Under the pieces are notes generated by a model. It made no database searches. It was given only the letters and a program-made list of their open reading frames with translations, and was not told the DNA's origin. Below, piece after piece: positions 2,297 to 64,000 of a stretch of DNA of 64,000 bases. This stretch comes from Patescibacteria group bacterium (lineage in GTDB: Bacteria > Patescibacteriota > Minisyncoccia > UBA6257 > GWB1-50-10). The position numbers and the translations under genes were made by a program. The stretch spans positions 6,779 to 70,778 of the forward strand of contig JBBTQX010000002.1 in assembly GCA_038065455.1 (NCBI GenBank), given 5' to 3'. Within the stretch, counting starts at the first letter, position 1; each line of letters opens with the position of its first letter.

Positions 2297-3145
2297 TTAA
2301 GAAAAATAACTTTTTAAAATCTTAATGTTTCTTTTATCGGGACCGTTATTATCAAACCCGGGCACCTCCAAGAGCCACGCCTTGTCCCAAAGGCGCTTTT
2401 CCTTCGCGAGCGCTTTGAATCCCGGAAGGCCGACATAGCCTTCGCCGATATTTTCATGCCGGTCGTTGTGCGAATTCCAGAGGGTTTTGGAGTCATTTGC
2501 GTGAATGGCAACGACATTCTCCAAACCGATTTCCTTATCCACCCTGTCCGCGAATGCCTTAATATTTCCCGCGTCATATTTGACGATTCCCGATTCAAAA
2601 GCGTGGGCGGTATCCAAACAGATTTTTACGCGCTTCGAGCCGATTTTTTTGAAGATAAACGCGAGCTCTTCGATGGTTTTTCCGATTTTCTCTCCCCCGC
2701 CGGCGGTATTTTCCATCACGAGAAAACTTTTGCCCGGAACATTCGCCAAGACTTTTTTCATTCCGGATATCGCCTGATTCAGCGATTTTTCCTTATCCAT
2801 TCCAGTACTCGAGCCGATATGGAAGATAAGCCCGGCCGCCCCGATAAGTTCGGCGATTTTCAGATGATCCGACAGGTTTCTGATTGATTTCGAAACCAGC
2901 TCCGGATTCGGACTGCCGAGATTCACCAGATACGAGGCGTGGAGATAAGCCGGGCCGATGCCGGTTCTTTTTCCCTCCTCTTTGAATTTATTTATTTCAT
3001 CCTCATTCGGCAGCTTTGTCTGCCAGGTGCGAGGCGAGGCGCCGAAAATCTGAATGCAATCCGCGCCGATTTCTTTGGCGCGCCCGAAGGCCGTCCAAAG
3101 CCCGCCGGCGGTAGAAACATGCGCTCCGATTTTAGGCTTAGTCAT
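2297..3145 (-). CDS. nfo: endonuclease IV (AP endonuclease family 2)
   Basis: 282 aa. Conserved blocks GAHVS, IFGASPR, HASYLVNL, HIGS, ENTAG, CLDTAH. Confidence 0.9.
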   Translation of the reverse strand: MTKPKIGAHVSTAGGLWTAFGRAKEIGADCIQIFGASPRTWQTKLPNEDEINKFKEEGKRTGIGPAYLHASYLVNLGSPNPELVSKSIRNLSDHLKIAELIGAAGLIFHIGSSTGMDKEKSLNQAISGMKKVLANVPGKSFLVMENTAGGGEKIGKTIEELAFIFKKIGSKRVKICLDTAHAFESGIVKYDAGNIKAFADRVDKEIGLENVVAIHANDSKTLWNSHNDRHENIGEGYVGLPGFKALAKEKRLWDKAWLLEVPGFDNNGPDKRNIKILKSYFS

Positions 3146-3258: not shown

Positions 3259-4273
3259 AAGATATAGCACTTCCGGGAGGGACTTCCCTGTCTGGTTTCA
3301 ATAATACCGGCCCGCCGTCATTGGCCGCCAGGAGCATTCCTTGGCTCTCCAGACCCATCATCATTCGCGGCTCCAGATTCGCAACAACGATTATCTCGCG
3401 GCCAACCATCTCTTCCGGCAAGTAAACCTTCCCGACACCGGCTAGAATTTGTCGCGGTTCCGGTTCGCCTAAGTCCACTTTTAGCTTCAAAAGCTTTTCG
3501 GAACCTTCCACGCGTTCGGCCTCAAGCACTCTCGCGACCTTCATTTCTATCTTTTTAAATTCATCAAAATTTATGTTCATATTATTATATTTTTGTACCT
3601 CAGTGCTACAATTGATTGTAGCATCGGACTTTACGAGCTTCTCCAATTGAACGAGACTCAGGGATTCTTTTTCCGTAAAATCCCCCACTCTCGTCCTTTT
3701 GAGCGCCGCGAGATACGCGCCGGTTCCCAATTCTTTTCCGATATCGCGGGCCAAAGCCCTTACATAAACTCCTGGACCGGTCACGGCACGCAGTTCTAAA
3801 TAAGGCCACTCGTATTCCAAAATCTCAATCTCTTTTATCTCAGCTTCTCTTTCCAATAATACCGGCTTCTCGCCTTTTCTGGCAAATTTATAAGCTTCCT
3901 TACCACTCACCTTGATAGCGCTGTAAATGGGCGGAATCTGCTTGATTTTGCCGATGAATTTTTTTACCGCTTCTTTGATTTCCGAAAGAGCCGGCTTTCT
4001 GTCCGACACGGAGGTTTTCTCCCCCTCCTCGTCGTCCGTGGCGCTCGTCTCGCCCAATTTAATCTTGGCGAGATATTCTTTTTCTTTCTTCACTTCAATG
4101 CCCAATTTTTTCGTAGCTTCGCGGCCGACGCCCACGACAAGCACGCCTTCGGCCAAAGGATCGAGCGTTCCGGCATGGCCGACCTTCTCGCCTCCGGTAA
4201 TCCTCTTTATGCTCTGAACAATATCATTCGAGGTTGGGCCTTTCGGTTTATAGATAGCGAAGATTCCTTTCAT
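3257..4273 (-). CDS. truB: tRNA pseudouridine-55 synthase TruB fused to a C-terminal CsaA/Trbp111-like tRNA-binding (OB) domain
   Basis: N-terminus GHAGTLDPLAEGVL (catalytic Asp motif). The C-terminal ~110 aa (KIEMKVARVLEAERVEGSEKLLKLKVDLG...) resembles EMAP/CsaA tRNA-binding domains. Confidence 0.8.
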   Translation of the reverse strand: MKGIFAIYKPKGPTSNDIVQSIKRITGGEKVGHAGTLDPLAEGVLVVGVGREATKKLGIEVKKEKEYLAKIKLGETSATDDEEGEKTSVSDRKPALSEIKEAVKKFIGKIKQIPPIYSAIKVSGKEAYKFARKGEKPVLLEREAEIKEIEILEYEWPYLELRAVTGPGVYVRALARDIGKELGTGAYLAALKRTRVGDFTEKESLSLVQLEKLVKSDATINCSTEVQKYNNMNINFDEFKKIEMKVARVLEAERVEGSEKLLKLKVDLGEPEPRQILAGVGKVYLPEEMVGREIIVVANLEPRMMMGLESQGMLLAANDGGPVLLKPDREVPPGSAIS

Positions 4274-8282: not shown

Positions 8283-8327
8283 ATTATTGTATTTTTGTTT
8301 ATTTTTATATTTAACCTTGACCTTTTG

Positions 8328-8390
8328 ACCGGGCAGTAGAAATTCGATCAGTTCTTCTGCCGTGTTGCAATCGAATTTTCACTGCCCGGT
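8328..8390. repeat. family-2 inverted-repeat element, short copy
   Basis: accgggcagtagaaattcgat ... atcgaattttcactgcccggt: 21-nt arms, 19/21 complementary. The grpE stop codon lies inside the right arm. Confidence 0.75.
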
Positions 8391-8864
8391 TGACAATTTC
8401 ACCCTGACGGGTTTTATGACTTTATTGTGCAACTTGTATCCTCCCGATACCTCTTCCGCTATCGTTCCCGGCGGCTCCGCGGCATTCACTTCGCCTATCG
8501 CTTCCGCCAGATTAGTATCGAAAGGGTCGCCGCGCTGAATTTTGATTCTTTCGAGGCCGTGTTTTTTCAAAATATCCTCGAGCTGACTCCTGATCAGCTC
8601 CACTCCTTTCTTCGCCGGATCGCCGTCCTTCAAGACCGAGAGGCTCAATTCGAAGCTATCCAAAGCGGGAATAAGGTCGGCTATGAGCATTTCATTCGAG
8701 AACTTGGCAAAGTTTTCCAGACGCCCCGCTTCTTCTTTTTTGTAATTAATCAGGTCGGCTTTCGCCCGCTTCCACCCGTTCAGATACTCCTCTTTTTCCC
8801 TTTCCAGTTTCGCAATCGGGTCTTCCGGAATATTATTATTATTTAAATCTTGTTCTTCGGACAT
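8379..8864 (-). CDS. grpE: nucleotide exchange factor GrpE
   Basis: 161 aa, GrpE-like coiled-coil plus beta domain. Sits between hrcA and dnaK. Confidence 0.9.
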   Translation of the reverse strand: MSEEQDLNNNNIPEDPIAKLEREKEEYLNGWKRAKADLINYKKEEAGRLENFAKFSNEMLIADLIPALDSFELSLSVLKDGDPAKKGVELIRSQLEDILKKHGLERIKIQRGDPFDTNLAEAIGEVNAAEPPGTIAEEVSGGYKLHNKVIKPVRVKLSTGQ

Positions 8865-17171: not shown

Positions 17172-17645
17172 TTAGTCAACGCTTAAAACGATATATTCAA
17201 CCGGCCCCTTGGGGGTTTGAATCTGTATTTTTTCGCCGGATTTCTTGCCCAAAAGTTCGTGTCCCAAAGGAGACTCGTTGGAGATGAGTCCGCCCGCCGG
17301 ATCGGCTTCATTCGATCCGACCATGGTGTAATTGACGGCCGAGCCGTTCTTATTGAGCGAGATTTTGGAACCAAGCCTGACCACGCCCGTGCTCGAAAGC
17401 CCGGTGGCGGACTGCTTCTCGAAAATAGCGGAATTTTTAATGAGATCGTCCAATTCGGCGATCTTTTTCTCCAAAATGCTCTGGTCTTCCCTAGCCGACT
17501 GGTATTCGGCATTCTCCGAAAGATCACCCAAATCCTTGGCGTGCTTCAAGCGCTCCATCACGGATTGACGGCCCTCTTTCTTCAGTTTATCCAGTTCGTC
17601 CACGAGCTCGTTATAACGCTCTTTGGTCAGATATTTTTTAGCCAT
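17172..17645 (-). CDS. greA: transcription elongation factor GreA
   Basis: 157 aa. Coiled coil with DLSENAEY acidic tip. Confidence 0.92.
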   Translation of the reverse strand: MAKKYLTKERYNELVDELDKLKKEGRQSVMERLKHAKDLGDLSENAEYQSAREDQSILEKKIAELDDLIKNSAIFEKQSATGLSSTGVVRLGSKISLNKNGSAVNYTMVGSNEADPAGGLISNESPLGHELLGKKSGEKIQIQTPKGPVEYIVLSVD

Positions 17646-19491
17646 TGATTCGGTTATTATAGTACCACAAGAAAACGTCCCTAGCCACCGGCACGACGTT
17701 CAAACTGCCTTCCCGCGCATTTTCCACGAGTATTAAAATGGCGATTTTGGGGTCGTCATAAGGAGCGAAGCCGACGAAAAACGCGTTGGTCTTCGTGTTG
17801 TTCGAAACCTGGGCCGAGCCGGTTTTGGCGGCGACCGGAATCGGCAAGTCATGCAGAAGATAGGAAGTGCCGTAATCCCGAATCACGCCTTCGCGCATCC
17901 CCTTCCTCACTTCCGCGAGCGCCGGACCGATCTCGGCCGAAAGGTCGCGGAGAATCGCCGCCTCGTTCTTCAAAATCGTCTCGCCTTTGATATTTTTTAT
18001 TTCATTCATCACGCGCGGCTTGTTCAGCTTGCCGCCATTTGCAACTGCATTTATGTAATTCAGAAGTTCGATGGGCGTCACCGAAAAATCGCCCTGGCCA
18101 ATCGAGACGTTGAAAGTATCTCCCAAGCGCCATGGCTCGCCTTTTACTCTTTCTTTCCATGCTGGATCCGGCAAGAAACCAGCATCCTCCCCCGTTAAAT
18201 CTATATTCGTCTTTTCGTCGAGACCGAAATTATGCCACCACTTTTTCAATCTTTCTATTCCCAAGCCTTTCTGGTCTCCGAAACCGCCGCCCACGGAATA
18301 GAAATAGACATTCGAGGAACGAGCCAGAGCCGAATATAAATCCACCCAACCCTGCGGCCGCCAATCCAAAAATCGGCTCGGATGCTCCGGGTTGTAGGGA
18401 TTCGGAACATCGAGATAGCCCGGCGAATAAATTTGATGTTTCGGATCCAAGATGCCTTCCGTAAGCGCCGCGGTTCCCACCAGGGGCTTAATGGTCGAAC
18501 CGGGATTGTAAATACCGGAAATCGCCCGATTAAAGAGCGGCTGATTGGCAGAGGTAAGATACTTTCCTATTTTATTCGAATCGAACGAAGGAATATTCAC
18601 AAGAGAAAGAACTTCGCCGTTCCGCGGGTCCATCGCTATCGCAAGGCCGGTATCCCGGCCCAAATCGCGAAGCGCTTGGCTCAAGCGGTCGTAGATATAT
18701 GTCTGGAGATCCCGATCAATAAAAGATGTAAGATTGTTGCCTGGAATCGGCTCCTGAACCGTTCTTTCTTTTTCGGTTCCGCCCACTGCGTTCGTGAGCG
18801 CAACCTTCTCACCGCTCGTTCCCCGAAGATATCCGTCGTAAAAAGCCTCGAGACCATTCCGCCCGACCTGGTCGTCGATATGCAACTCCGAATCTTTCTT
18901 CATATCACTCTTGTTTGCCAAACCAGTATAGCCGACTACGTGGGAAAATTTGAAAAGCGGCGTTTGAACGCGCCGGAACGACGGGTCTATCTCCAAGCCC
19001 GGAAGATTCGCGGCGGAGAGGGATACTAATTCATCGTGATCAAGATCGGGTTTCAAAAGAAATCGGTCGGTCAAATTCCAGTCCCGTTCCTCGAGAGCTC
19101 CAAGCACCTCGTTCTCATATAAACCCAAAGTATTCAAAACATCTCCAATTGCCATTCGCCTTTCCGCAGAAGTTTTCGGAAGAGATTTCGGAACGAGATA
19201 GGCATCGAAAGCGGGCTCGTTTTCGACCATAGCCTTTCCGAAACGGTCGTAGATAATCCCCCGCGGAGCGGGCTCCGTTTTTATATCGCTCATATTCGCC
19301 GTAGCGCGCCGGGAATAGGGTTCATGATTCAAGACCGCCAAGTTCACAAATTGGGCGAAGACGGCAAGAAAAACCAGCGCGACCAAGATGATGAAATTCC
19401 TGAAAACCCGGTCCGTGAGAGGAATTTCCAAAAGGTCTTCCTCGACCGTTCGGTCGGTCAGAATGTCTTCCAGATTAAGCTCGGGATTCAT
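17638..19491 (-). CDS. mrdA: penicillin-binding protein 2 (elongasome transpeptidase)
   Basis: STIKP (SxxK), SSN, KTGSA motifs. Follows mreBCD. Confidence 0.88.
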   Translation of the reverse strand: MNPELNLEDILTDRTVEEDLLEIPLTDRVFRNFIILVALVFLAVFAQFVNLAVLNHEPYSRRATANMSDIKTEPAPRGIIYDRFGKAMVENEPAFDAYLVPKSLPKTSAERRMAIGDVLNTLGLYENEVLGALEERDWNLTDRFLLKPDLDHDELVSLSAANLPGLEIDPSFRRVQTPLFKFSHVVGYTGLANKSDMKKDSELHIDDQVGRNGLEAFYDGYLRGTSGEKVALTNAVGGTEKERTVQEPIPGNNLTSFIDRDLQTYIYDRLSQALRDLGRDTGLAIAMDPRNGEVLSLVNIPSFDSNKIGKYLTSANQPLFNRAISGIYNPGSTIKPLVGTAALTEGILDPKHQIYSPGYLDVPNPYNPEHPSRFLDWRPQGWVDLYSALARSSNVYFYSVGGGFGDQKGLGIERLKKWWHNFGLDEKTNIDLTGEDAGFLPDPAWKERVKGEPWRLGDTFNVSIGQGDFSVTPIELLNYINAVANGGKLNKPRVMNEIKNIKGETILKNEAAILRDLSAEIGPALAEVRKGMREGVIRDYGTSYLLHDLPIPVAAKTGSAQVSNNTKTNAFFVGFAPYDDPKIAILILVENAREGSLNVVPVARDVFLWYYNNRING

Positions 19492-19616
19492 CCCGTTAGA
19501 AACAGGATGCGCTTAACAAGCACATCCGTCTAGATTCAAACGACTTTATTATTGCAATGTTCCCCTGTATTGTTTCCATGATATTTCTGAATTTGCCCGT
19601 TTCTAACGGGATTCAT
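19489..19616 (-). mobile_element. family-1 element, ORF-less copy D (MITE-like derivative of the GIY-YIG element)
   Basis: Gene-strand reading: ATGAATCCCGTTAGAAAC ... TGTTTCTAACGGG-ATG(mrdA). Shares the termini and subterminal hairpin of copies A-C. Confidence 0.75.
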
Positions 19617-20097
19617 GAAGATAACCGTATTTTCCAAAAAAATTCAAACAAAGCCAAAAAATCGAACCCAAAACCAGATTATAAACGACTTCGCCAAAAA
19701 CAAAACCGCCGGCAAAAACACTGCCGGCCGTAAATTTGAGCGCTCCGTAAAATATTACTGTTCCCAAGCCGACGGCCAAAAGAAAATCTTGGAAGGACCG
19801 GCCCGTGAAGAAGTTTCGCAGGAAGAAGATTGCAAGAATTATCAAAAGGAGTATGGCCCAAGGCAACATCCAAAAATCGGACAAAATCAAAGTTACCGCA
19901 AAAGCAAAAAACAGCAGAATATATAAAAAACCCGGCTTTATCCGTTTCTTGAAATAAGGTTCGAGAAGCAAGCCAGAGAAAAATATGAGCGCCAGATTGG
20001 GATTGATTCCGCCTAAACTCAAAATTCGGGTCATTCCCAAAAAAATCAAAAGTCCCAGGAAAAGGAGTACAAAAACGAAACGGAACAAATCTCCCAT
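19603..20097 (-). CDS. mreD: rod shape-determining protein MreD-like
   Basis: 164-aa polytopic membrane protein between mreC and mrdA. The last codons and the stop lie inside element copy D. Confidence 0.6.
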   Translation of the reverse strand: MGDLFRFVFVLLFLGLLIFLGMTRILSLGGINPNLALIFFSGLLLEPYFKKRIKPGFLYILLFFAFAVTLILSDFWMLPWAILLLIILAIFFLRNFFTGRSFQDFLLAVGLGTVIFYGALKFTAGSVFAGGFVFGEVVYNLVLGSIFWLCLNFFGKYGYLHESR

Positions 20098-20102
20098 CGG
20101 CC

Positions 20103-20798
20103 TTACGGAAAATCCGTGATTACCAGGACCTTTTTGAGATTTTCGAAGCTAATGGGCGGCTCCAGCTTCACTCGCGACCAAATGCCATTCTCCCCGTCGC
20201 TTCGGCCTATGACTTTTCCGATATTCAGATTAAGGGGAGAATCTTTGGCGAGATTGAAAACCGCGTCGTTCATCTTCACGACCGCGTCTTTGGGCACCAA
20301 ATCCAGATAAGGCGCGGGGCCGCCCACGAGAAGCGCTTTTATTCTATCCGGCCCGAAAGCCGCCGCACTCCGCCAATTCGGGTCGAAAATCGTTGCCGCT
20401 TCGCTCTGGGTTTTTTTCACTTCTTTTATCCTCCCGATTAGGATTCCTTCGGCAGCCAAGACCGGCATGCCGATTTTCAAGCCGTCATCGGCGCCGGCAT
20501 TTATCACGATTGAGCCGTAATTATTGAAGGGGTAATCTGAAAAAACTCCGGCAATTTTGTAGCGGTATTCGCCGCTCAAAGGCGTTTCCTCTTTCGCGCC
20601 CGCGGAAATCTGGGCCAAAAGACCGTTCTGAATTTTCAGATTCTGCCAATTCTCATAGTTGAATTCGGGATCGGCGGCGCCAAAAACGACAACGCGGATA
20701 TTCCGGAAAAAACCGACGAGGGGCTGTCTGAAAAGAAAAATGGCTCCGACGAGCCCGGCAAAAACCATTCCCAATACCAGGATGCGGAACGACTTCAT
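20103..20798 (-). CDS. mreC: rod shape-determining protein MreC
   Basis: 231 aa. N-terminal TM plus beta-barrel domains. 4-nt overlap with mreB. Confidence 0.8.
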   Translation of the reverse strand: MKSFRILVLGMVFAGLVGAIFLFRQPLVGFFRNIRVVVFGAADPEFNYENWQNLKIQNGLLAQISAGAKEETPLSGEYRYKIAGVFSDYPFNNYGSIVINAGADDGLKIGMPVLAAEGILIGRIKEVKKTQSEAATIFDPNWRSAAAFGPDRIKALLVGGPAPYLDLVPKDAVVKMNDAVFNLAKDSPLNLNIGKVIGRSDGENGIWSRVKLEPPISFENLKKVLVITDFP

Positions 20799-21823
20799 AG
20801 ATTGATTATCTTTGAGTTCGAAAAATTATCCAAAAGATTCCGATAAGCGCCGATGTTTTCGCTCATAAGCCCCGTGCCGCGCGAAACGCAGAGAATGGGT
20901 TCGTCCGCCAGATGCACTTCGACGCCGATTTCTTTTTTTATGACTTGGTCTATGCCCCGAAGCAGGCTTCCGCCTCCGCAAAGATAAATGCCGTTCTTGA
21001 AAACGTCTCCAGTCAGTTCCGGCGGCGTCTCGTCAATCAGCTCCTTCAGCGACTCCACCATCATCTTTACCGGCTTCGCCAGCCAATAGCGCACTTGGGT
21101 GTCTTTAATAGCCGCTTCCCGTGGCAGGCCACTCGCCGCGTCCCGTCCGCGAATCATAATTTCCAAATGCTCGGTTTGGGGTATCGCCGCTCCAACCGCT
21201 ATTTTTATTTCTTCGGCCGTCGGTTCGCCGATATGTAATTTCATTTCTTCCTTCACCCCTTTCAATATTTCTTGATTCAAATAATCTCCGGCCACTTTGA
21301 GCCTGCGCGAAATAACGATGCCGTTCATCGAGATGATGGCGATGCCCGTCGTACCCGCCCCAATGTCCACGATAAGATGGGCCGTCGGTTGATTAATATC
21401 CAATTGATTCCCCAGGGCCGCGGCGACCGGCTGTTCCACCAAGTGCACCCGACTTACCCCGACTTCCTTCAAGAGGTCTTCCACCGACTTTCTTTCCACC
21501 TCCGTCAGGTTGGTCGGCACGCTTACGATGGTCTCGGTGAACCAGGACCAGGGCAATTTCTTGTTTTTCAAAATGTGCTGAATCATTTCTTTGGCCATGT
21601 CGAAATCGCCGATGACGCCGTTCACCATCGGCCGCAAAGCCGTCACGTGGGTCGGCGTACGCGAGAGCATCCGCTTGGCTTCGGTGCCCACGGCCACCAC
21701 CCGATTCGTGCGGTTGTTGAATGCCACAATCGACGGTTCGCTCAGAATTATTCCCGTGCCTTTCAAATAGACGCGGGTCGCGTCCGTTCCCAAATCTATG
21801 CCGATGATTTTTTTGAAGATCAT
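20795..21823 (-). CDS. mreB: actin-like rod shape protein MreB
   Basis: IGIDLGT, DIGAGTT motifs. 342 aa. Confidence 0.93.
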   Translation of the reverse strand: MIFKKIIGIDLGTDATRVYLKGTGIILSEPSIVAFNNRTNRVVAVGTEAKRMLSRTPTHVTALRPMVNGVIGDFDMAKEMIQHILKNKKLPWSWFTETIVSVPTNLTEVERKSVEDLLKEVGVSRVHLVEQPVAAALGNQLDINQPTAHLIVDIGAGTTGIAIISMNGIVISRRLKVAGDYLNQEILKGVKEEMKLHIGEPTAEEIKIAVGAAIPQTEHLEIMIRGRDAASGLPREAAIKDTQVRYWLAKPVKMMVESLKELIDETPPELTGDVFKNGIYLCGGGSLLRGIDQVIKKEIGVEVHLADEPILCVSRGTGLMSENIGAYRNLLDNFSNSKIINL

Positions 21824-28842: not shown

Positions 28843-29130
28843 ATGTATCCCGTTAGAGACATTTCTATGTATTACAATTACGTTTTAAGAAGCAAAAAAG
28901 ATGGGAAATGGTATACTGGCTACACGAATGATCTACGGAAGCGCTTTAGCCAGCACAATAGCGATAAATTCCCTCAATGGACCAAAAATCGGGGTCCTTT
29001 TGAAATCATATACTATGAAGCCTGCAAAGATCTGCAAGATGCAAGGTCGAGGGAATATTATCTAAAAACAGGAATGGGTAAACGTTATATCAAAAATAGG
29101 CTAAAGCGCTTCCTGTCTCTAACGGGATGA
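28843..29130 (+). mobile_element. family-1 element, ORF-bearing copy A (GIY-YIG ORF bounded by 15-bp TIRs)
   Basis: ATCCCGTTAGAGACA (28847-28861) is the exact reverse complement of TGTCTCTAACGGGAT (29114-29128). The ORF spans TIR to TIR. Confidence 0.75.
28843..29130 (+). CDS. small GIY-YIG nuclease-domain protein (COG2827/UPF0213-like)
   Basis: YNYVLRS..GKWYTGYTNDLRKRFSQHN...E..YLK: GIY, YIG, Arg and Glu positions present. Alternative start at ATG 28867. Confidence 0.8.
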   Translation: MYPVRDISMYYNYVLRSKKDGKWYTGYTNDLRKRFSQHNSDKFPQWTKNRGPFEIIYYEACKDLQDARSREYYLKTGMGKRYIKNRLKRFLSLTG

Positions 29131-30371
29131 ACCTCAAAACCCGGCGAACTCTCTTTTACTTCTTCATTCTCATATTCGTCCTTGCGGGCGCTTATCTCCT
29201 CGCAACCGCCCAGGGGCTGGTCCTGGATTTCAAAAATCTGAAGATTACCGGCACTGGCGGGCTCTTTTTGAAGTACGTTCCGCCCGACGCGACTGTGGAA
29301 TTGAACGGCAAAAAAACCGATGTTTCGCCCGGCCTCGTTTCGAGCGGAATTTTCATCTCTAAATTAATTCCCGACGAATACCGGGTAAAGATTTCAAAAC
29401 CGGGCTTCTCTGCCTGGGAAAAGACACTCGCGGTTAAGAACGGCGCGGTGGCTTCGGCGAGCCAAATCAGGCTCTGGCCCGAAGTCTGGGATTTGAATGT
29501 CATTACGACGAGCTCCGTCCGGGATTTCCGGCTCACGGGTGCGGGTCTAGTACTCCAAGGAAAAAACGGAACTCTTCGGCTGGACGGATTTTCTTTGGGA
29601 AACAGGAGTGTCGCTTTGAGCGGGCCGGACTCGTCCCTCATCGTTACGACCGATGAAAAAGAAAATTTTGTAACCAATCTCGAAGATTTGTCACCCGCGC
29701 TCGATATCGTCCGGCTCTTTAATTCGCTGAAACAAAGCCAGTTGAATCTTCCCGGCACGATCATTCCTAAAAATTACTTCCTTCATCCCTTTAACGCCAA
29801 AATTCTCATCACGACCGGAAACGCGCTTTACTCGCTCGATATCAAAAGATTGAGACTTGAAAAACTGACCGATATGGCAGGAATTAAGAAGGCGGAATTA
29901 AGGGGAAACGAAATGTTTCTTTTCGATATGAAAGACAATATAACGACATTCAATCTTTTTCTCCAAACTGCCAGAATTTATGAATCGACCTCCACCGAAG
30001 CCATCGGAATAGGAGCGAGCCTGGCCGGCTTGCCGGCCCCCGACGGGAAAAAGATTTTTTTGCTTTCAAAAAACGACACGCTTTCTTTGAAAGTTTTGGA
30101 AAATTATTATGCCGACGGCGAAGTGAGAAAGGGCGATATGTGGCCCGTTTTTTCCGACCGGGGCAAAATAACGGATTTCAAATGGTTGAATGGCAATTCT
30201 AATTATGCGCTGGTACTTGCCGAAAAAAACTTGTTCATCGTTGAAACCGACCGGCGCACCCCGCAGAATATCCGACTCATATCCCAAGGAGTGGAAAAAT
30301 TCGCGACGGAGGGAAACGATCTCTATATCCTCAAAACCGACGGCACGCTTCTGAGGGCGAGTTTGAAGTAG
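29127..30371 (+). CDS. hypothetical membrane-anchored protein with a PEGA-like domain
   Basis: N-terminal TM. DATVELNGKKT...YRVKISKPGF resembles PEGA. The ATG overlaps the GIY-YIG TGA. Confidence 0.6.
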   Translation: MNLKTRRTLFYFFILIFVLAGAYLLATAQGLVLDFKNLKITGTGGLFLKYVPPDATVELNGKKTDVSPGLVSSGIFISKLIPDEYRVKISKPGFSAWEKTLAVKNGAVASASQIRLWPEVWDLNVITTSSVRDFRLTGAGLVLQGKNGTLRLDGFSLGNRSVALSGPDSSLIVTTDEKENFVTNLEDLSPALDIVRLFNSLKQSQLNLPGTIIPKNYFLHPFNAKILITTGNALYSLDIKRLRLEKLTDMAGIKKAELRGNEMFLFDMKDNITTFNLFLQTARIYESTSTEAIGIGASLAGLPAPDGKKIFLLSKNDTLSLKVLENYYADGEVRKGDMWPVFSDRGKITDFKWLNGNSNYALVLAEKNLFIVETDRRTPQNIRLISQGVEKFATEGNDLYILKTDGTLLRASLK

Positions 30372-33296: not shown

Positions 33297-33896
33297 TTAA
33301 CGCGAATAGAATTGGCCGACCACGTTTATATCGAAAGGTAGTTGCACTCCGGTAACGGGCGGTTTTGCCACGCACTCGCCTTTCAATTCCTCCGCTTTGA
33401 GCTTAAGCCACTCAGGCGGGGTGTATTGCTTCAACCGGAGTTGAATATCATCGAAAATCTTCGCCGAGCGGGATTCGGGCCGCACAGCAATAATGTCTTT
33501 AACCCTAACATAATAGGAAGGAATTGTCACTTTTCGGCCATTCACGTGGATATGGCCGTGGGAGACGAGCTGGCGGGCGATTCTCGGAGACTTCGCGAAT
33601 CCCAAAAGAAAAACCACGTGGTCGAGGCGGCTTTCGAGCTTGGTCATAATGCCGTCTTTGTCGGAATTCCGGAACATTCTCATCATCTGATGATTATTCA
33701 GCCCGTAAAGAATTTGGATTTTCTGTTTTTCCTGGAGCTGCTTTCCGAATTCGGAAACGGAGTGGCGCGCCTGGCCGTGCTGGCCCGGGCGGTAAGGATG
33801 GCGTACCATCGCGCACTTCGGCGAATTACAGCGGTCTCCCTTGAGGAAGAGTTTGATGCCCAGCGATCTTTCTTTTTTCTCTTTGATTCTTTTCAT
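33297..33896 (-). CDS. rpsD: 30S ribosomal protein S4
   Basis: S4 N-terminal Cys cluster (CNSPKC) and S4 RNA-binding domain. Start trimmed to ATG 33896; the track extension reads into the repeat. Confidence 0.9.
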   Translation of the reverse strand: MKRIKEKKERSLGIKLFLKGDRCNSPKCAMVRHPYRPGQHGQARHSVSEFGKQLQEKQKIQILYGLNNHQMMRMFRNSDKDGIMTKLESRLDHVVFLLGFAKSPRIARQLVSHGHIHVNGRKVTIPSYYVRVKDIIAVRPESRSAKIFDDIQLRLKQYTPPEWLKLKAEELKGECVAKPPVTGVQLPFDINVVGQFYSR

Positions 33897-34024
33897 CCCG
33901 TTTAGAGACAGGATACGCTTAAGAAGCATATCCGTGAAGCATTAGCCGATTCGACTTTATTGGATTCTATTGATTGTTTGATAATCATGTTATTCATAAG
34001 TTTGATGTCTCTAACGGGATTCAT
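33894..34024 (-). mobile_element. family-1 element, ORF-less copy B
   Basis: Gene-strand reading: ATGAATCCCGTTAGAGACA ... TGTCTCTAAACGGG-ATG(rpsD). Confidence 0.75.
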
Positions 34025-34030
34025 ATTTTT

Positions 34031-34175
34031 ACCAGGCAGTGAAAATGCGATTGCAAATCGTGATTGAATCGACGATTCTCGCTATTTCCAATGACCTTTT
34101 ATTTATATTCATATGTTTTGATATTATGATGGTTTTCGATTTGAATTCAATCTAATCGCATTTCTACTGCCTGGT
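34031..34175. repeat. family-2 inverted-repeat element, 145-nt copy
   Basis: accaggcagtgaaaatgcgatt ... aatcgcatttctactgcctggt. The interior is alignable with the copy at 8865-9009. The right end overlaps the rpsK stop codon. Confidence 0.75.
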
Positions 34176-34624
34176 TAAACCCTTCTGGTCTTGGCCGGAC
34201 GCGGTCCGTTGTGCGGAATCGGCGTCACATCCTTGATGGACAGTATATTCAAGCCCTTGCCGGCGAAAGAACGGATGGCGGAATCGCGGCCGCTACCCAC
34301 GCCGCGCACGAAAATCTCCACGGTATTCGGGCCGGTCTTTTCCAATTTCTGGGCAATGGCTTCGGCGACTTTGGAAGACGCGAAAGGAGTCGCCTTCTTG
34401 GGTCCGGAAAATCCCAAAGAGCCAGCGGACATCCATGTAATCACGGCACCCTTATCGTCGGTTACGGTAATAATGGTGTTATTATAGGTGGCTTGAATAT
34501 AGATACGGCCGTTTTCCCAGTGCTGTTTGGATGTGGACGAAGATTGCTTAGCCGGCGCCTTTTCGGCCGTCCCCGCTTCCTTCACCGCTTCGTCTTTGGT
34601 TTTTATGACTTTTTTCTTTCCCAT
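34175..34624 (-). CDS. rpsK: 30S ribosomal protein S11
   Basis: 149 aa. Conserved S11 core with an N-terminal K/A-rich extension. Confidence 0.92.
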   Translation of the reverse strand: MGKKKVIKTKDEAVKEAGTAEKAPAKQSSSTSKQHWENGRIYIQATYNNTIITVTDDKGAVITWMSAGSLGFSGPKKATPFASSKVAEAIAQKLEKTGPNTVEIFVRGVGSGRDSAIRSFAGKGLNILSIKDVTPIPHNGPRPAKTRRV

Positions 34625-34686
34625 TTGCCGATTATATATGAATTTTCGAGTCTACAGACGATGAAAATTCATCCATAGAATCGAGC

Positions 34687-34785
34687 ACCCCGCCATCATC
34701 CCCGACTTGGAGCAGGATATTTTCTTTCATTATGATTTTCGTTATTTTATTGTTTTTCATATTTTTAGTGTAATGATGGCGGGGT
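34687..34785. repeat. family-3 inverted repeat in the rpsM-rpsK spacer
   Basis: accccgccatcat (34687-34699) and atgatggcggggt (34773-34785): perfect 13 bp, 73-nt AT-rich interior. Confidence 0.65.
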
Positions 34786-34795
34786 AAGTGTTCCC

Positions 34796-35181: not shown

Positions 35182-35298
35182 TTATCCTTGTCTTTGTTTA
35201 TGCCTCGGGTTCTTGGCACATATGACGTAAACCCGCCCTTTTCGACGGACGGTCTTGCAAACGCTGCAGATTTTTTTTACCGATGCTCTGACTTTCAT
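35182..35298 (-). CDS. rpmJ: 50S ribosomal protein L36
   Basis: Hand-translated: [38 protein letters not shown] (38 aa). Absent from the ORF track because it is too short. Confidence 0.9.
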
Positions 35299-35424
35299 CC
35301 CGTTAGAGACAGGATACGCTTAAAAAGCGCATCCGTGATATGTCGCTTGGTTTGATTATTCCGACCTGTTGGTTATTCATATTGATACATTATTCAAAAT
35401 TTGTTTGTCTCTAACGGGATTCAT
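35296..35424 (-). mobile_element. family-1 element, ORF-less copy C
   Basis: Gene-strand reading: ATGAATCCCGTTAGAGACA ... TGTCTCTAACGGG-ATG(rpmJ). Confidence 0.75.
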
Positions 35425-47142: not shown

Positions 47143-47172
47143 CTAGGTGGTGTCTTTAAAGACACCACCTAG
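47143..47172. repeat. 30-nt perfect palindrome, copy 1
   Basis: ctaggtggtgtctttaaagacaccacctag. Lies 9 nt upstream of the ATG at 47134 and overlaps its AGGA Shine-Dalgarno. Confidence 0.8.
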
Positions 47173-62829: not shown

Positions 62830-64000
62830 TTATCCCCAGGGTGGTGTCTTTAAAGACACCACCCTGTTTTTCGACGTTTTCAAAATGAAAGTTGCGATTG
62901 CCAGATAATAAGCAACAATAAAAATCCAACCCAAAGACACGCTTAGAGATAGATTGAAGTTGCCGAAGAATTCTATCAGTCCCGTCTCGACTTTCAATAG
63001 CGGCCAAACGAACCAGCCGGCGATGAGCGCGAGATAATGCGAGATGCCGGAGAGAACGGCGACGGCGAAGCCGAGCATCATCGTATACGGAATAAGCTCC
63101 AGAACCAGAACATTCGAGATGAGCGAAATAGGCGAAAAATTCCCGAAGTTCTGGATTAATATCGGAAGAACCATAAGCTGAGCGGAGCCGGTCATCAGGA
63201 GATTCTCCCGCCAGGAAAAAGTTTCTTTTTTCCCGCCGACCGGCAAATTGAAAAGCTCTTCGAGCGCCGGCTTCAAATATACGATGCCGATGAGCGCGAG
63301 GAATGAAAGTTCAAAACCGGCATCGAATACCAACACCTTGGGATTTATAAGCACCATCAAGAGTCCCGCTAAAGTTATGGCATTCCGCGGATTGAAGATG
63401 CGGCCGCTCTCGGTCGCAACGACGACGAGCGCGCCCATAATCGCCGCTCGCACGACCGATGCCTCCGCTCCGGTCATAAGCACGAAGGCGACAAGGAAAA
63501 TGAAGGCGACAATAAAAGCAGTCCTTCTTTTCAAGAATGAAGTGAGTAAAGCCATTGCCGCCACGATGACGATCGAGACGTTGTAGCCCGAAAGCGCGAC
63601 CAGGTGCGTCGTGCCGCTTATCTGCATCGCCACTTTGAACTCGGGAGAAAAATCGCTCCGCTCACCCAAGGTCAGGCCGGAAAGAAAAGCCGCTTCCTCG
63701 ACCGGCAATATCTCTCCGAAATTATCCACAGTGGAATTCTTGAGATTGAATAAAAAAGATTTGAAGGGCGCGCCCTTATCTTCCGCGATTAGCTTAACTT
63801 CGGGATATGAAACAATTCCGCTTATTCCCTCCTTCGCCAGATATTGGGCATAGCCTGCCTGCGCAGGCAGGCCTCCCAATTCCGGTTTTTTGACCGCGCC
63901 ATTTACCGAAATCAAGTCGCCATAATGGAATTCGGGATAGCGCGGAGCATTTACGAGAATTTTCACCTTGGCGCCGGAAAATTCCGTTTGGACGTAAAGA
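62830..64000 (-). CDS. comEC: ComEC/Rec2 competence-channel part (OB-like + multi-TM competence domain), 5'-partial
   Basis: Competence-domain TM pattern. The reading frame stays open upstream of GTG 63966 to the window edge. Confidence 0.8.
   Translation of the reverse strand, partial: LYVQTEFSGAKVKILVNAPRYPEFHYGDLISVNGAVKKPELGGLPAQAGYAQYLAKEGISGIVSYPEVKLIAEDKGAPFKSFLFNLKNSTVDNFGEILPVEEAAFLSGLTLGERSDFSPEFKVAMQISGTTHLVALSGYNVSIVIVAAMALLTSFLKRRTAFIVAFIFLVAFVLMTGAEASVVRAAIMGALVVVATESGRIFNPRNAITLAGLLMVLINPKVLVFDAGFELSFLALIGIVYLKPALEELFNLPVGGKKETFSWRENLLMTGSAQLMVLPILIQNFGNFSPISLISNVLVLELIPYTMMLGFAVAVLSGISHYLALIAGWFVWPLLKVETGLIEFFGNFNLSLSVSLGWIFIVAYYLAIATFILKTSKNRVVSLKTPPWG
62837..62866. repeat. 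30-nt perfect palindrome, copy 2
   Basis: cagggtggtgtctttaaagacaccaccctg. The central 24 nt are identical to copy 1. Lies in the last codons of the upstream comEC ORF. Confidence 0.8.

Follow-up and report, generated by a model that had tools for sequence, protein, structure and literature searches.

How did the same ten nucleotides come to stand at the end of one gene and at the start of the next in a Patescibacteria genome? The question arises in a stretch of 64,000 nucleotides of contig JBBTQX010000002.1 from a Patescibacteria group bacterium (GenBank assembly GCA_038065455.1), called the window here. In this window, ATGAATCCCG is found on the minus strand at 19616-19607, where an open reading frame (ORF) in the position of mreD ends, and again at 19491-19482, where mrdA begins. 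The original prediction had noticed this ten-nucleotide duplication, which is present as described, and had offered three explanations for it: a target-site duplication, a preference for start-codon contexts, or an mrdA start codon derived from a truncated second copy of the element lying between the two occurrences. The results presented below indicate that this element, copy D, is very probably a nonautonomous member, similar to a miniature inverted-repeat transposable element (MITE), of a family (family 1) of very small Patescibacteria DNA elements that inserts at a start codon, duplicates three to four bases, and rebuilds the ATG. This 121-base mobile element is common in ultra-small groundwater bacteria (Patescibacteria). 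A full-text literature search found no description of such elements in Patescibacteria, and the family appears to be previously undescribed.

The junction belongs to a row of genes on the minus strand, in which mreB (20795-21823) and mreC (20103-20798; Pfam MreC) are followed by the ORF in the mreD position (19603-20097) and by mrdA (17638-19491). Its features are listed here; coordinates of copy D are minus-strand readings, and an L followed by a number (L133, L192, and others) denotes a locus drawn from a genome collection.

19491..19611, minus strand: copy D, a 121-nt noncoding element, TCCCGTTAGAAAC...GTTTCTAACGGGA, by direct reading, with its edges taken from the covariation of flanks in 77 copies
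19612..19615, minus strand: left target duplication TGAA, which with A19616 is the relic of the original mrdA start, ATGAA
19487..19490, minus strand: right target duplication TGAA; the element's last base, A19491, plus TG gives the rebuilt mrdA ATG (19491-19489)
19599..19611, minus strand: 5′ terminal inverted-repeat arm TCCCGTTAGAAAC, containing the TAG (19605-19603) that closes the ORF in the mreD position
19491..19503, minus strand: 3′ terminal inverted-repeat arm GTTTCTAACGGGA, by direct reading
19505..19527, minus strand: subterminal hairpin GGATGTGCTT-GTT-AAGCGCATCC, immediately upstream of the 3′ arm, from covariation across 31 copies
19482..19486, minus strand: native mrdA bases TCCCG (codons AAT CCC GAG), present in L133 and L122 without a family 1 element
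19603..20097, minus strand: membrane-protein ORF in the mreD position, 164 aa, with its stop codon inside the element
17638..19491, minus strand: mrdA, a PBP2-type transpeptidase of 617 aa with PBP_dimer and Transpeptidase domains (Pfam)

Read on the minus strand, the junction is ...TAC GGT TAT CTT C ATGAA / TCCCGTTAGAAAC GGGCAAATTC...ACGGATGTGCTTGTTAAGCGCATCC T GTTTCTAACGGGA / TGAATCCCGAGCTT..., and the terminal inverted repeats of copy D are perfect over 13 nt. Across the family the two arms covary at 18 compensatory positions, among them the GAAAC/GTTTC pair of copy D, which is a compensatory variant of the consensus GAGAC/GTCTC. The upstream ORF ends ...CTT CAT GAA TCC CGT TAG and so reads into the repeat, with its TAG (19605-19603) inside the 5′ arm, and the mrdA ORF begins ATG AAT CCC GAG (MNPE) after the other repeat; both readings agree with those of the original prediction. 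The upstream ORF has no Pfam match even at E ≤ 10 and no NCBIfam match, and the name mreD is given by its position only, between MreC and the PBP2-type protein. When copy D and one TGAA are removed from the sequence, the sequence reads ...CTT CAT GAA TCC CGA GCT TAA, such that the ORF before insertion ended in LHESRA-stop and overlapped mrdA by 17 nt. Insertion replaced the host's TCC CGA by TCC CGT, both of which encode Ser-Arg, and shortened the end of the protein from ...LHESRA to ...LHESR, a loss of one residue. The earlier claim that the element provides both the C-terminus and the stop was therefore right about the stop and overstated the C-terminus.

The edges of the element were placed by comparison of many copies. 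A search of the genome collection with the 14-mer arm (ATCCCGTTAGAGAC) found at least 120 loci. In about 40 among the loci listed, the arm recurs as an exact inverted pair at a spacing of 67-282 nt; these are almost without exception from Patescibacteria metagenome-assembled genomes (MAGs), with lengths of mostly about 118-128 or 276-282 nt. Two mismatches per arm were then allowed, which yielded 77 nonredundant copies in the sampled loci. Oriented by the CT before the 3′ arm, these copies take the dominant form xxATGA / ATCCCG...CGGGAT / GAAyyy. Of the 77 copies, 61 have the same 4-mer on the left as on the right, and where neither 4-mer is that of the consensus the two still match in 24 of 30 copies (TGGA, TGAG, TCAA, TGCC, CTAA, and others); flank variants GG, CA, GC, GT, TT, and TA likewise match on the two sides. 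In each of the 11 cases where the first base of the 14-nt arm varies, it does so on a single arm, and variants on the 5′ side usually equal position three of the 3′ flank (five copies with GTCCCG... / GAG; CTCCCG... / GCC). This base must therefore be counted with the duplication. The A of the rebuilt ATG, by comparison, is the element's own, since 5′ GTG, TTG, and CTG codons still pair with a 3′ ATG. With a 4-nt duplication the element ends become perfectly symmetric, TCCCG...CGGGA. The tabulation of flanks that the original prediction had called for thus covers 77 copies with matching 4-mers in 61, and TGAA-type flanks far outnumber TTCA. The ATGAA that it had reported at both ends of copies B and C of the window is present in both, and in copy A the left end reads ATGTA and the right end ATGAA. 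It had not included the coding nature of copy A, the true 13-nt inverted repeat, or the origin of the A of the rebuilt ATG in the element.

Other sizes and sources of the duplication were considered. A duplication of 2 nt, like the 2-nt overhangs of GIY-YIG homing enzymes, does not agree with the third base, which also covaries. A 5-nt duplication, ATGAA, does not agree with the occurrence of 5′ GTG, TTG, and CTG codons together with a rebuilt ATG. A right TGAA carried by the element itself, as in IS608, is disfavored, as members of a single subfamily within one genome can have different 4-mers, changed in concert on the two sides (L067, L080, L008).

Three clean pairs of filled and empty sites were found. 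In L130 and L131, which are 96-98% identical, the empty site reads AAAGGTTATGAAAAAGTCAG and the filled site reads AAAGGTTA(TGAA)TCCCG...CGGGA(TGAA)AAAGTCAG; the L130 element is an independent family 1 insertion at the mreD/mrdA junction, and the MrdA of its lineage shares just 54% identity with that of the window. The other two pairs come from L192 (GCA_038064955.1), which shares 91-97% nucleotide identity with the window and is without copies C and B: its empty junctions are AGTTTTATGAAAGTCAG at infA/rpmJ and AAAAAACATGAAAAGAATC at rpsK/rpsD. For copy D itself, L121 does not differ from the window in sequence. L133 shares 99.8% identity with the window up to the junction and 97% after it, and carries no family 1 element there; a different inverted-repeat element is followed by an identical ATGAATCCCGAGCTT, and the mrdA start, ATGAATCCCGAG, is identical to that of the window. 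Both elements are missing from L122 (83-86% nucleotide identity), where the junction is ...TAA ATTATC ATGAATAATCCCGAA, and more distant relatives retain the Pro-Glu codons, for example, ATGCCCGAA at 72% MrdA identity. In the Hainich wells this junction occurs in three states, those of the window and L121, of L133, and of L122. Comparison of MrdA N-termini with those of element-free orthologues, a check that the original prediction had proposed, thus gives the same start codons in L133 and retained Pro-Glu in the others.

As to location, an ORF of 60 codons or more begins at the rebuilt ATG in 53 of 68 oriented copies, compared to 2 when the same test is made at the opposite end and strand. The second of the explanations first put forward, a preference for start-codon contexts, is borne out by these counts. 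This location may owe much to selection, as in a compact genome start codons may be the sole ATGAA context where an ATG-rebuilding insertion is harmless. Rebuilding of the start codon does not explain the orientation of the elements because the arms are symmetric and the ATG is rebuilt either way round. For the coding copies the orientation is explained by the need to borrow the host start, and in the short copies its bias suggests either a mechanism that distinguishes the strands or selection acting on the transcript. A Shine-Dalgarno motif is present upstream of the relic start codon in only 5 of 68 copies, and the empty ribosomal-protein junctions of L192 are A/T-rich (2494-2503, 3003-3010, 3457-3476), as is the sequence before the start codons of genes that the element has hit. 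Initiation in these organisms seems to be independent of that motif.

Both edges of the element carry stop codons. At the 5′ edge, TGA (in the duplication; A TGA ATC) and TAG (in the arm; AT GAA TCC CGT TAG) give stops in the two non-element frames, and within 15 nt they end an upstream gene that overruns the start codon, the ORF in the mreD position being one example. At the 3′ edge, CTG TCT CTA ACG GGA TGA and TGT CTC TAA provide TGA and TAA in two frames, at most 7 nt from the rebuilt ATG, and the remaining frame continues into that of the host gene. Among 41 short copies, 17 can be read from the relic start through the whole interior without a stop, compared to 6 of 41 for each other frame. 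Copy B can be read in this way and copy D cannot.

In the window, ATGAATCCCG has exactly four occurrences, at both ends of D and at the 5′ ends of B and C; shuffled sequence gives a mean of 0.30, and none of 100 shuffles reached four. The ten-nucleotide repeat can now be divided by origin. Its A is a host base on the left and the element's last base on the right; TGAA is the target duplication; and TCCCG consists of the element's first five bases on the left and of native mrdA codons (Asn-Pro-Glu) on the right. A target-site duplication, as first proposed, therefore accounts for three to four of the ten bases, on the evidence of the 61 of 77 and 24 of 30 matching flanks and of the filled and empty sites, and does not account for the rest. 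The right-hand ATGAATCCCG is native mrdA sequence because L133, L122, and the distant relatives carry it, or its Pro-Glu codons, without family 1. These same genomes refute the proposal that mrdA begins, start codon and first codons included, with what is left of a truncated second element copy, which we regard as the least probable of all the readings. Tandem copies do exist, with the junction ...CGGGATGAATCCCGTTAGAG in L033, and a truncated second copy would resemble ATGAATCCCG, but the close relative L133 has the identical downstream sequence, L122 and the 72% relatives keep theirs, and what follows CCCG is conserved MrdA coding sequence (ELNLEDILTDR). A subtler possibility is that capture is preferred at host sites that look like the element's own left junction (TGAA / TCCCG), through microhomology-dependent repair or a nuclease that recognizes a pseudo-end, so that the native ATGAATCCCG of mrdA drew the insertion. 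The tandem arrays of L033 and L008 reuse the left junction of an element as target, and host sites of two other inverted-repeat families carry the first bases of the element concerned (L122 GGCCCGGTAC and the start of the L133 element, GCCCGGTAC; L192 CCAGGCAA and the start of a window element, CCAGGCAG); in addition, a different element and an independent family 1 insertion are found at the same mreD/mrdA junction in other lineages (L133, L123, L130). However, TCCCG follows the right duplication in none of the approximately 70 other copies outside tandem arrays, the downstream positions +4 to +10 show A-richness only, and the sequences in L192 and L122 may have been left behind by elements, as footprints or solo ends, and not be naive targets. 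About 0.08 chance matches of 5 nt are expected with 77 copies, which makes a single case weak either way. Such targeting is accordingly judged unlikely, and the TCCCG extension at D is compatible with a chance match or, possibly, with a weak preference for end-like targets.

A different kind of explanation would deny that the element is mobile DNA at all and take it as a vertically inherited cis-regulatory RNA or leader, with ATGAA as the usual start context. Folded as RNA, copy D reaches -42.8 kcal/mol (z = -4.06), the subterminal hairpin is conserved by covariation, and the copies are co-oriented with the genes that follow, which include the essential genes rpsD, rpmJ, and mrdA. Yet the element is present or absent at identical junctions in genomes that are 91-99.8% identical, its duplicated flanks covary on two sides, the genes downstream are unrelated, a coding form has the same ends, and tandem copies occur. 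No Rfam family matches it: the whole window gave one tRNA only, and a permissive scan of 19380-19730 gave only microRNA and snoRNA matches at chance level. A conserved regulatory RNA is therefore very improbable, and a mobile element of the MITE-like kind is preferred; inserted copies may nevertheless have a regulatory by-effect.

A coding partner of copy D, with shared ends, is found in the same window, where the arm search and a repeat scan returned four family 1 copies in two forms. Copies other than D are as follows.

28848..29127, plus strand: copy A, the coding form, 280 nt, with flanks TGTA on the left and TGAA on the right
28843..29130, plus strand: GIY-YIG nuclease ORF, 95 aa from the captured ATG (PF01541); its TGA shares bases with the ATG that opens the next gene downstream (29127-30371; 414 aa)
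33896..34019, minus strand: copy B, 124 nt, at the rpsD start codon, with an ORF of 40 codons that begins at the old ATG and is closed by a TAA 5 nt short of the rebuilt one; the corresponding site in L192 is empty
35298..35419, minus strand: copy C, 122 nt, at the rpmJ start codon; the site is empty in L192

All four copies start TCCCGTTAGA(G/A)AC, and A, C, and D finish GT(C/T)TCTAACGGGA. Copies B and C are located inside the ribosomal-protein operon, and the 3′ arm of copy B has one additional A (GTCTCTAAACGGGA). Because of this extra A, the rpsD frame is open upstream to an ATG in the hairpin loop of the element (33297-33929, minus strand), and the called rpsD gains an 11-residue N-terminal extension, MLLKRILSLNG. 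The ORF of copy A starts at the ATG just beyond the 5′ arm (MYPVRD...), ends ...KRFLSLTG, and has its TGA in an ATGA overlap with the next gene, which encodes a membrane-anchored protein of 414 aa. It matches PF01541 with E = 5.5e-16 and 59.1 bits compared to a cut-off of 22.6. The short copies and copy A have in common both arms and the sequence adjoining the 3′ arm, which in the short copies reads KRILFLTG-stop. The element that B, C, and D represent in short form has its coding form in copy A.

Four other coding copies, which like A are 276-282 nt long, have the same ends as the short copies. Homologues of the copy A protein form 3,337 clusters at E ≤ 1e-5, mostly 94-95 aa in length, named "GIY-YIG nuclease family protein", and almost all from Patescibacteria, with the N-terminus MNPVRD and the C-terminus LSLTG in common. 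Among the best 120 of these clusters, 115 have the LTG end and 78 the M-x-P-V-R start, the others being called from an internal ATG; these ends and starts indicate that both arms lie in the reading frame family-wide. Y13, Y24, R32/R34, H38, E71, and N85 are invariant in a 23-sequence alignment (A2) of GIY-YIG homologues. In viral contigs the search returned no inverted arm pairs, only 53 single matches and one 31-nt hairpin, and hence no indication of phage carriage. P0034, the homologue with the widest occurrence, occupies a single locus in every sample and so gives no evidence for identical copies at multiple sites; the copy there has compensatory arm changes and a rebuilt GTG. Family 1 sites involve many unrelated genes (mrdA, rpsD, rpmJ, and those of a PEGA-domain protein and a glycosyltransferase).

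Several copies elsewhere show further arrangements. A coding copy at L246 1529-1815, between methyltransferase and glycosyltransferase genes, is found at the same locus in 24 contigs from many samples; it has matching changes in both arms (CCCCGTTAGAGAT / ATCTCTAACGGGG; CCCCG...CGGGG), and the rebuilt glycosyltransferase start is GTG. L033 5471-5712 holds a tandem pair of family 1 copies with one common TGAA, and L008 5897-6280 holds three elements in a row, one of them of a related family with the arm TCCCGTAGTAGAAAA. From these arrays it follows that the left junction of an inserted copy stays usable as a target. There are also very short versions with little beyond the two arms, at L014, L057, L058, and L072 (50-73 nt) and at L106 781-847 and L111 7080-7146 (67 nt). 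The two 67-nt copies are in frame from the relic ATG into the host gene (MNPVRD...) and would add about 23 residues to the host protein.

Besides the arms, the short copies share a structural feature. In most of them a hairpin stands directly 5′ of TGTCTCTAACGGGA, and its stem sequence varies from copy to copy. With the hairpin arms set solely by the conserved AC and TGTCTC anchors in 31 copies, 83.5% of cells are paired, compared to 37-48% in slid controls, and 72 cells show double changes, compared to 8-24; the observed score was reached in 0 of 500 shuffles. In the five coding copies the same stem spans 150 nt, and the LRKRF codons pair with the LKRFL codons at 10-12 of 12 positions, with compensatory synonymous changes. 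A plain MAFFT alignment of the 3′ ends analyzed by RNAalifold left the variable hairpin unaligned and reported no covariation.

Collectively, these results suggest a model for the life of the element. It would insert at A / TGAA, a start codon followed by A, and duplicate the three to four bases (T)GAA. Since the element ends in ...CGGGA, its last A and the duplicated TG remake the ATG of the host gene, the old ATG remaining at the 5′ edge, and because the ATG is rebuilt the flanking genes are left intact. In copy A, the old host ATG starts the 94-aa GIY-YIG ORF, which fills the element from repeat to repeat, so that the nuclease uses the initiation site of the host. The host gene would in turn be translated by termination-reinitiation, as the ATGA overlap in copy A suggests, or by direct initiation at the rebuilt ATG. 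The GIY-YIG protein is probably the nuclease that mobilizes both forms. It is conceivable, by analogy with the Ssn nucleases discussed below, that it recognizes the hairpin and arm in single-stranded DNA (ssDNA). By the same tentative token, the 280-nt coding form might be a complete autonomous transposon with the 94-aa nuclease as its mobilizer, recognizing hairpin plus arm probably in ssDNA, inserting in fixed orientation at start codons, taking over the translation start of the host, and rebuilding the ATG. It is far smaller than any insertion sequence known to us.

Several observations weigh against this model and against parts of the identification of copy D. The strong orientation bias could stem from selection instead of mechanism, and presence or absence among close relatives could reflect precise loss instead of gain. 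The fourth duplicated base, T, has one case for it and two against, and it is because of this weak independent support that the duplication is given as 3-4 nt. About ten copies (L039, L037, L117, L077, L104, L004, L031, L013, and L056 among them) are outliers, in which the 5′ ATG is missing, the pattern is shifted by one base, or a flank is palindromic. B, C, and D resemble one another at only about 50-60% in their interiors, which are unrelated to that of A, so the three are not recent copies of each other or of A. Tight translational coupling is inapplicable to copy D, as the sole ORF that starts from its relic ATG has 26 codons and stops 47 nt before the mrdA ATG. GIY-YIG nucleases hydrolyze DNA, and we know of none that joins strands; both the part of the GIY-YIG protein in moving the element and the mechanism of mobility are what we infer from the genomic arrangement.

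Other inverted-repeat elements occupy the same regions. A second family, CCAGGCAGTAGAAATGCGATT...AATCGCATTTTCACTGCCTGG, has a copy at window 34027-34176 (minus strand), between the rpsK stop and copy B; a copy of it in L123 sits on the mrdA start codon with TATG(CC) duplicated, at a site that is empty in L135, and a 66-nt hairpin version is present at window 8327-8392 with TTGAC/TTGAC flanks, upstream of a dnaK-like gene. At rpsK/rpsD, L192 3455-3475 has only CCAGGCAA between two TAA triplets, which resembles an excision footprint or a solo end. A third element, GCCCGGTACTACAAT...ATTGTAGTACCGGGC, occupies the mreD/mrdA junction of L133 (about 1920-2017) and gives the upstream protein a different C-terminus (..NFLARYYNKLL); the element-free L122 (about 1915-1950) already has GGCCCGGTAC at that place. 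The mreD/mrdA junction has thus been struck by three element families in related lineages. An insert of about 165 nt with the inverted repeat CCCCGCCATCAT / ATGATGGCGGGG lies between the rpsM stop and the rpsK start (window 34628-34793, minus strand) and is absent in L192 (AAATAAAGATATGGG). The ribosomal-protein operon of the window accordingly has four insertions relative to the 91-97% identical L192: B, C, the CCAGGCAG element, and the insert of about 165 nt. Elsewhere in the window, two identical perfect 24-nt palindromes, GGTGGTGTCTTTAAAGACACCACC, at 47146-47169 and 62840-62863, are each followed by a T-run and are probably shared terminator hairpins.

The findings bear on several wider questions. 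Insertion at start codons with rebuilding of the ATG shows how, in a streamlined genome, a parasite can sit before genes as essential as rpsD, rpmJ, and mrdA. For annotation, they imply that gene callers misplace starts and stops at these sites, as in the 11-residue extension of rpsD and in GIY-YIG genes called with two different starts. If the coding form is indeed a transposon, GIY-YIG nucleases would join the enzymes that drive prokaryotic transposition, and the tolerance of Patescibacteria for dense mobile DNA inside essential operons would be explained. Furthermore, sets of protein, arm, and hairpin could enlarge the toolbox of sequence-specific nucleases.

Compared to other small repeats and mobile genes of bacteria, family 1 shares features with several and agrees completely with none. 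Bacterial MITEs, such as the Correia elements of Neisseria, are short, noncoding, multicopy sequences with terminal inverted repeats and a short target duplication; they are often cotranscribed with their neighbors and can donate stops or C-terminal residues. In family 1 there are likewise short noncoding members with terminal inverted repeats, a target duplication with filled and empty sites, and dispersed copies that share their ends with a coding partner, and the sole ORF of that partner is a GIY-YIG nuclease for which NCBIfam returned no transposase model. Known MITEs derive from insertion sequences with DDE transposases, are mostly intergenic, and do not rebuild codons, whereas the only ORF associated with family 1 is the GIY-YIG nuclease and the start codon is restored.

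Elements of the IS200/IS605 and REP/RAYT type provide a second comparison, with recognition of a subterminal hairpin, oriented insertion beside a target of 4-5 nt, very small elements, and many noncoding hairpin derivatives; their transposase is a Y1 HUH enzyme, and no target bases are duplicated on insertion. The orientation of family 1 is fixed relative to a short asymmetric target in a similar way (53 versus 2; TGAA far above TTCA), but its flanks are duplicated and it encodes no HUH ORF. Rickettsia palindromic elements are palindromic repeats of about 100-150 nt that lie in frame in coding regions, are tolerated in or at the edge of essential genes, and have no nuclease gene within. Family 1, unlike these, is found at the start codon, and only a few copies of 67 nt (L106, L111) are in-frame N-terminal additions. 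Freestanding GIY-YIG homing genes, such as the seg genes of phage T4, are wedged between host genes and rely on host expression signals, as does the GIY-YIG gene of copy A. Homing endonucleases of this kind have an added DNA-binding domain and act on the cognate allele only, without inverted repeats or duplication; family 1 differs in its inverted repeats, its duplication, its many unrelated sites, and its noncoding derivatives.

The closest known system is that of the Ssn GIY-YIG nucleases with their hairpin repeats, of which the family 1 protein is at most a candidate member. Patescibacteria MAGs were, to our knowledge, probably outside the reference or representative genome database behind the GIY-YIG phylogeny of the Ssn paper. 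The best solved relative of the copy A ORF is UPF0213 BH0048 (E = 3e-12), the best annotated plasmid match is yazA (44% identity), and NCBIfam gave only a subthreshold match to a group I intron endonuclease. The UPF0213 relatives (BH0048, YazA) point, on sequence grounds, to a clade neighboring Ssn (cd10448). Ssn proteins are single-domain GIY-YIG nucleases of 94 aa that bind oriented hairpin repeats (NTS/SRM) in ssDNA and cut beside them (Chenal et al., Nat Commun 2025, PMC11893778). Inverted hairpin-forming repeats, which also have many noncoding genomic copies, stand on both sides of the genes for these proteins, and the authors noted a layout like that of insertion sequences, mobility being only hypothesized (PMC11893778). 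In the same way, the copy A protein is 94-95 aa long with a GIY-YIG domain only, inverted arms bracket its ORF, and the hairpin with its conserved flank TGTCTCTAACGGGA recurs, oriented, in dispersed short copies. As in the Ssn repeats, orientation is given by conserved bases beside a variable, covarying stem, although the published degenerate SRM pattern had 0 matches in the window compared to 0.3 in shuffles. Unlike the Ssn system as reported, the family 1 ORF overlaps both repeats, the repeats are true termini with a target duplication, and insertion takes place at start codons with rebuilding of the ATG, accompanied by filled and empty sites and by noncoding derivatives with a covarying hairpin. 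Family 1 thus offers genomic evidence, in its target duplication, its filled and empty sites, its noncoding derivatives, and its fixed orientation, for the mobility of a single-domain GIY-YIG nuclease together with hairpin repeats.

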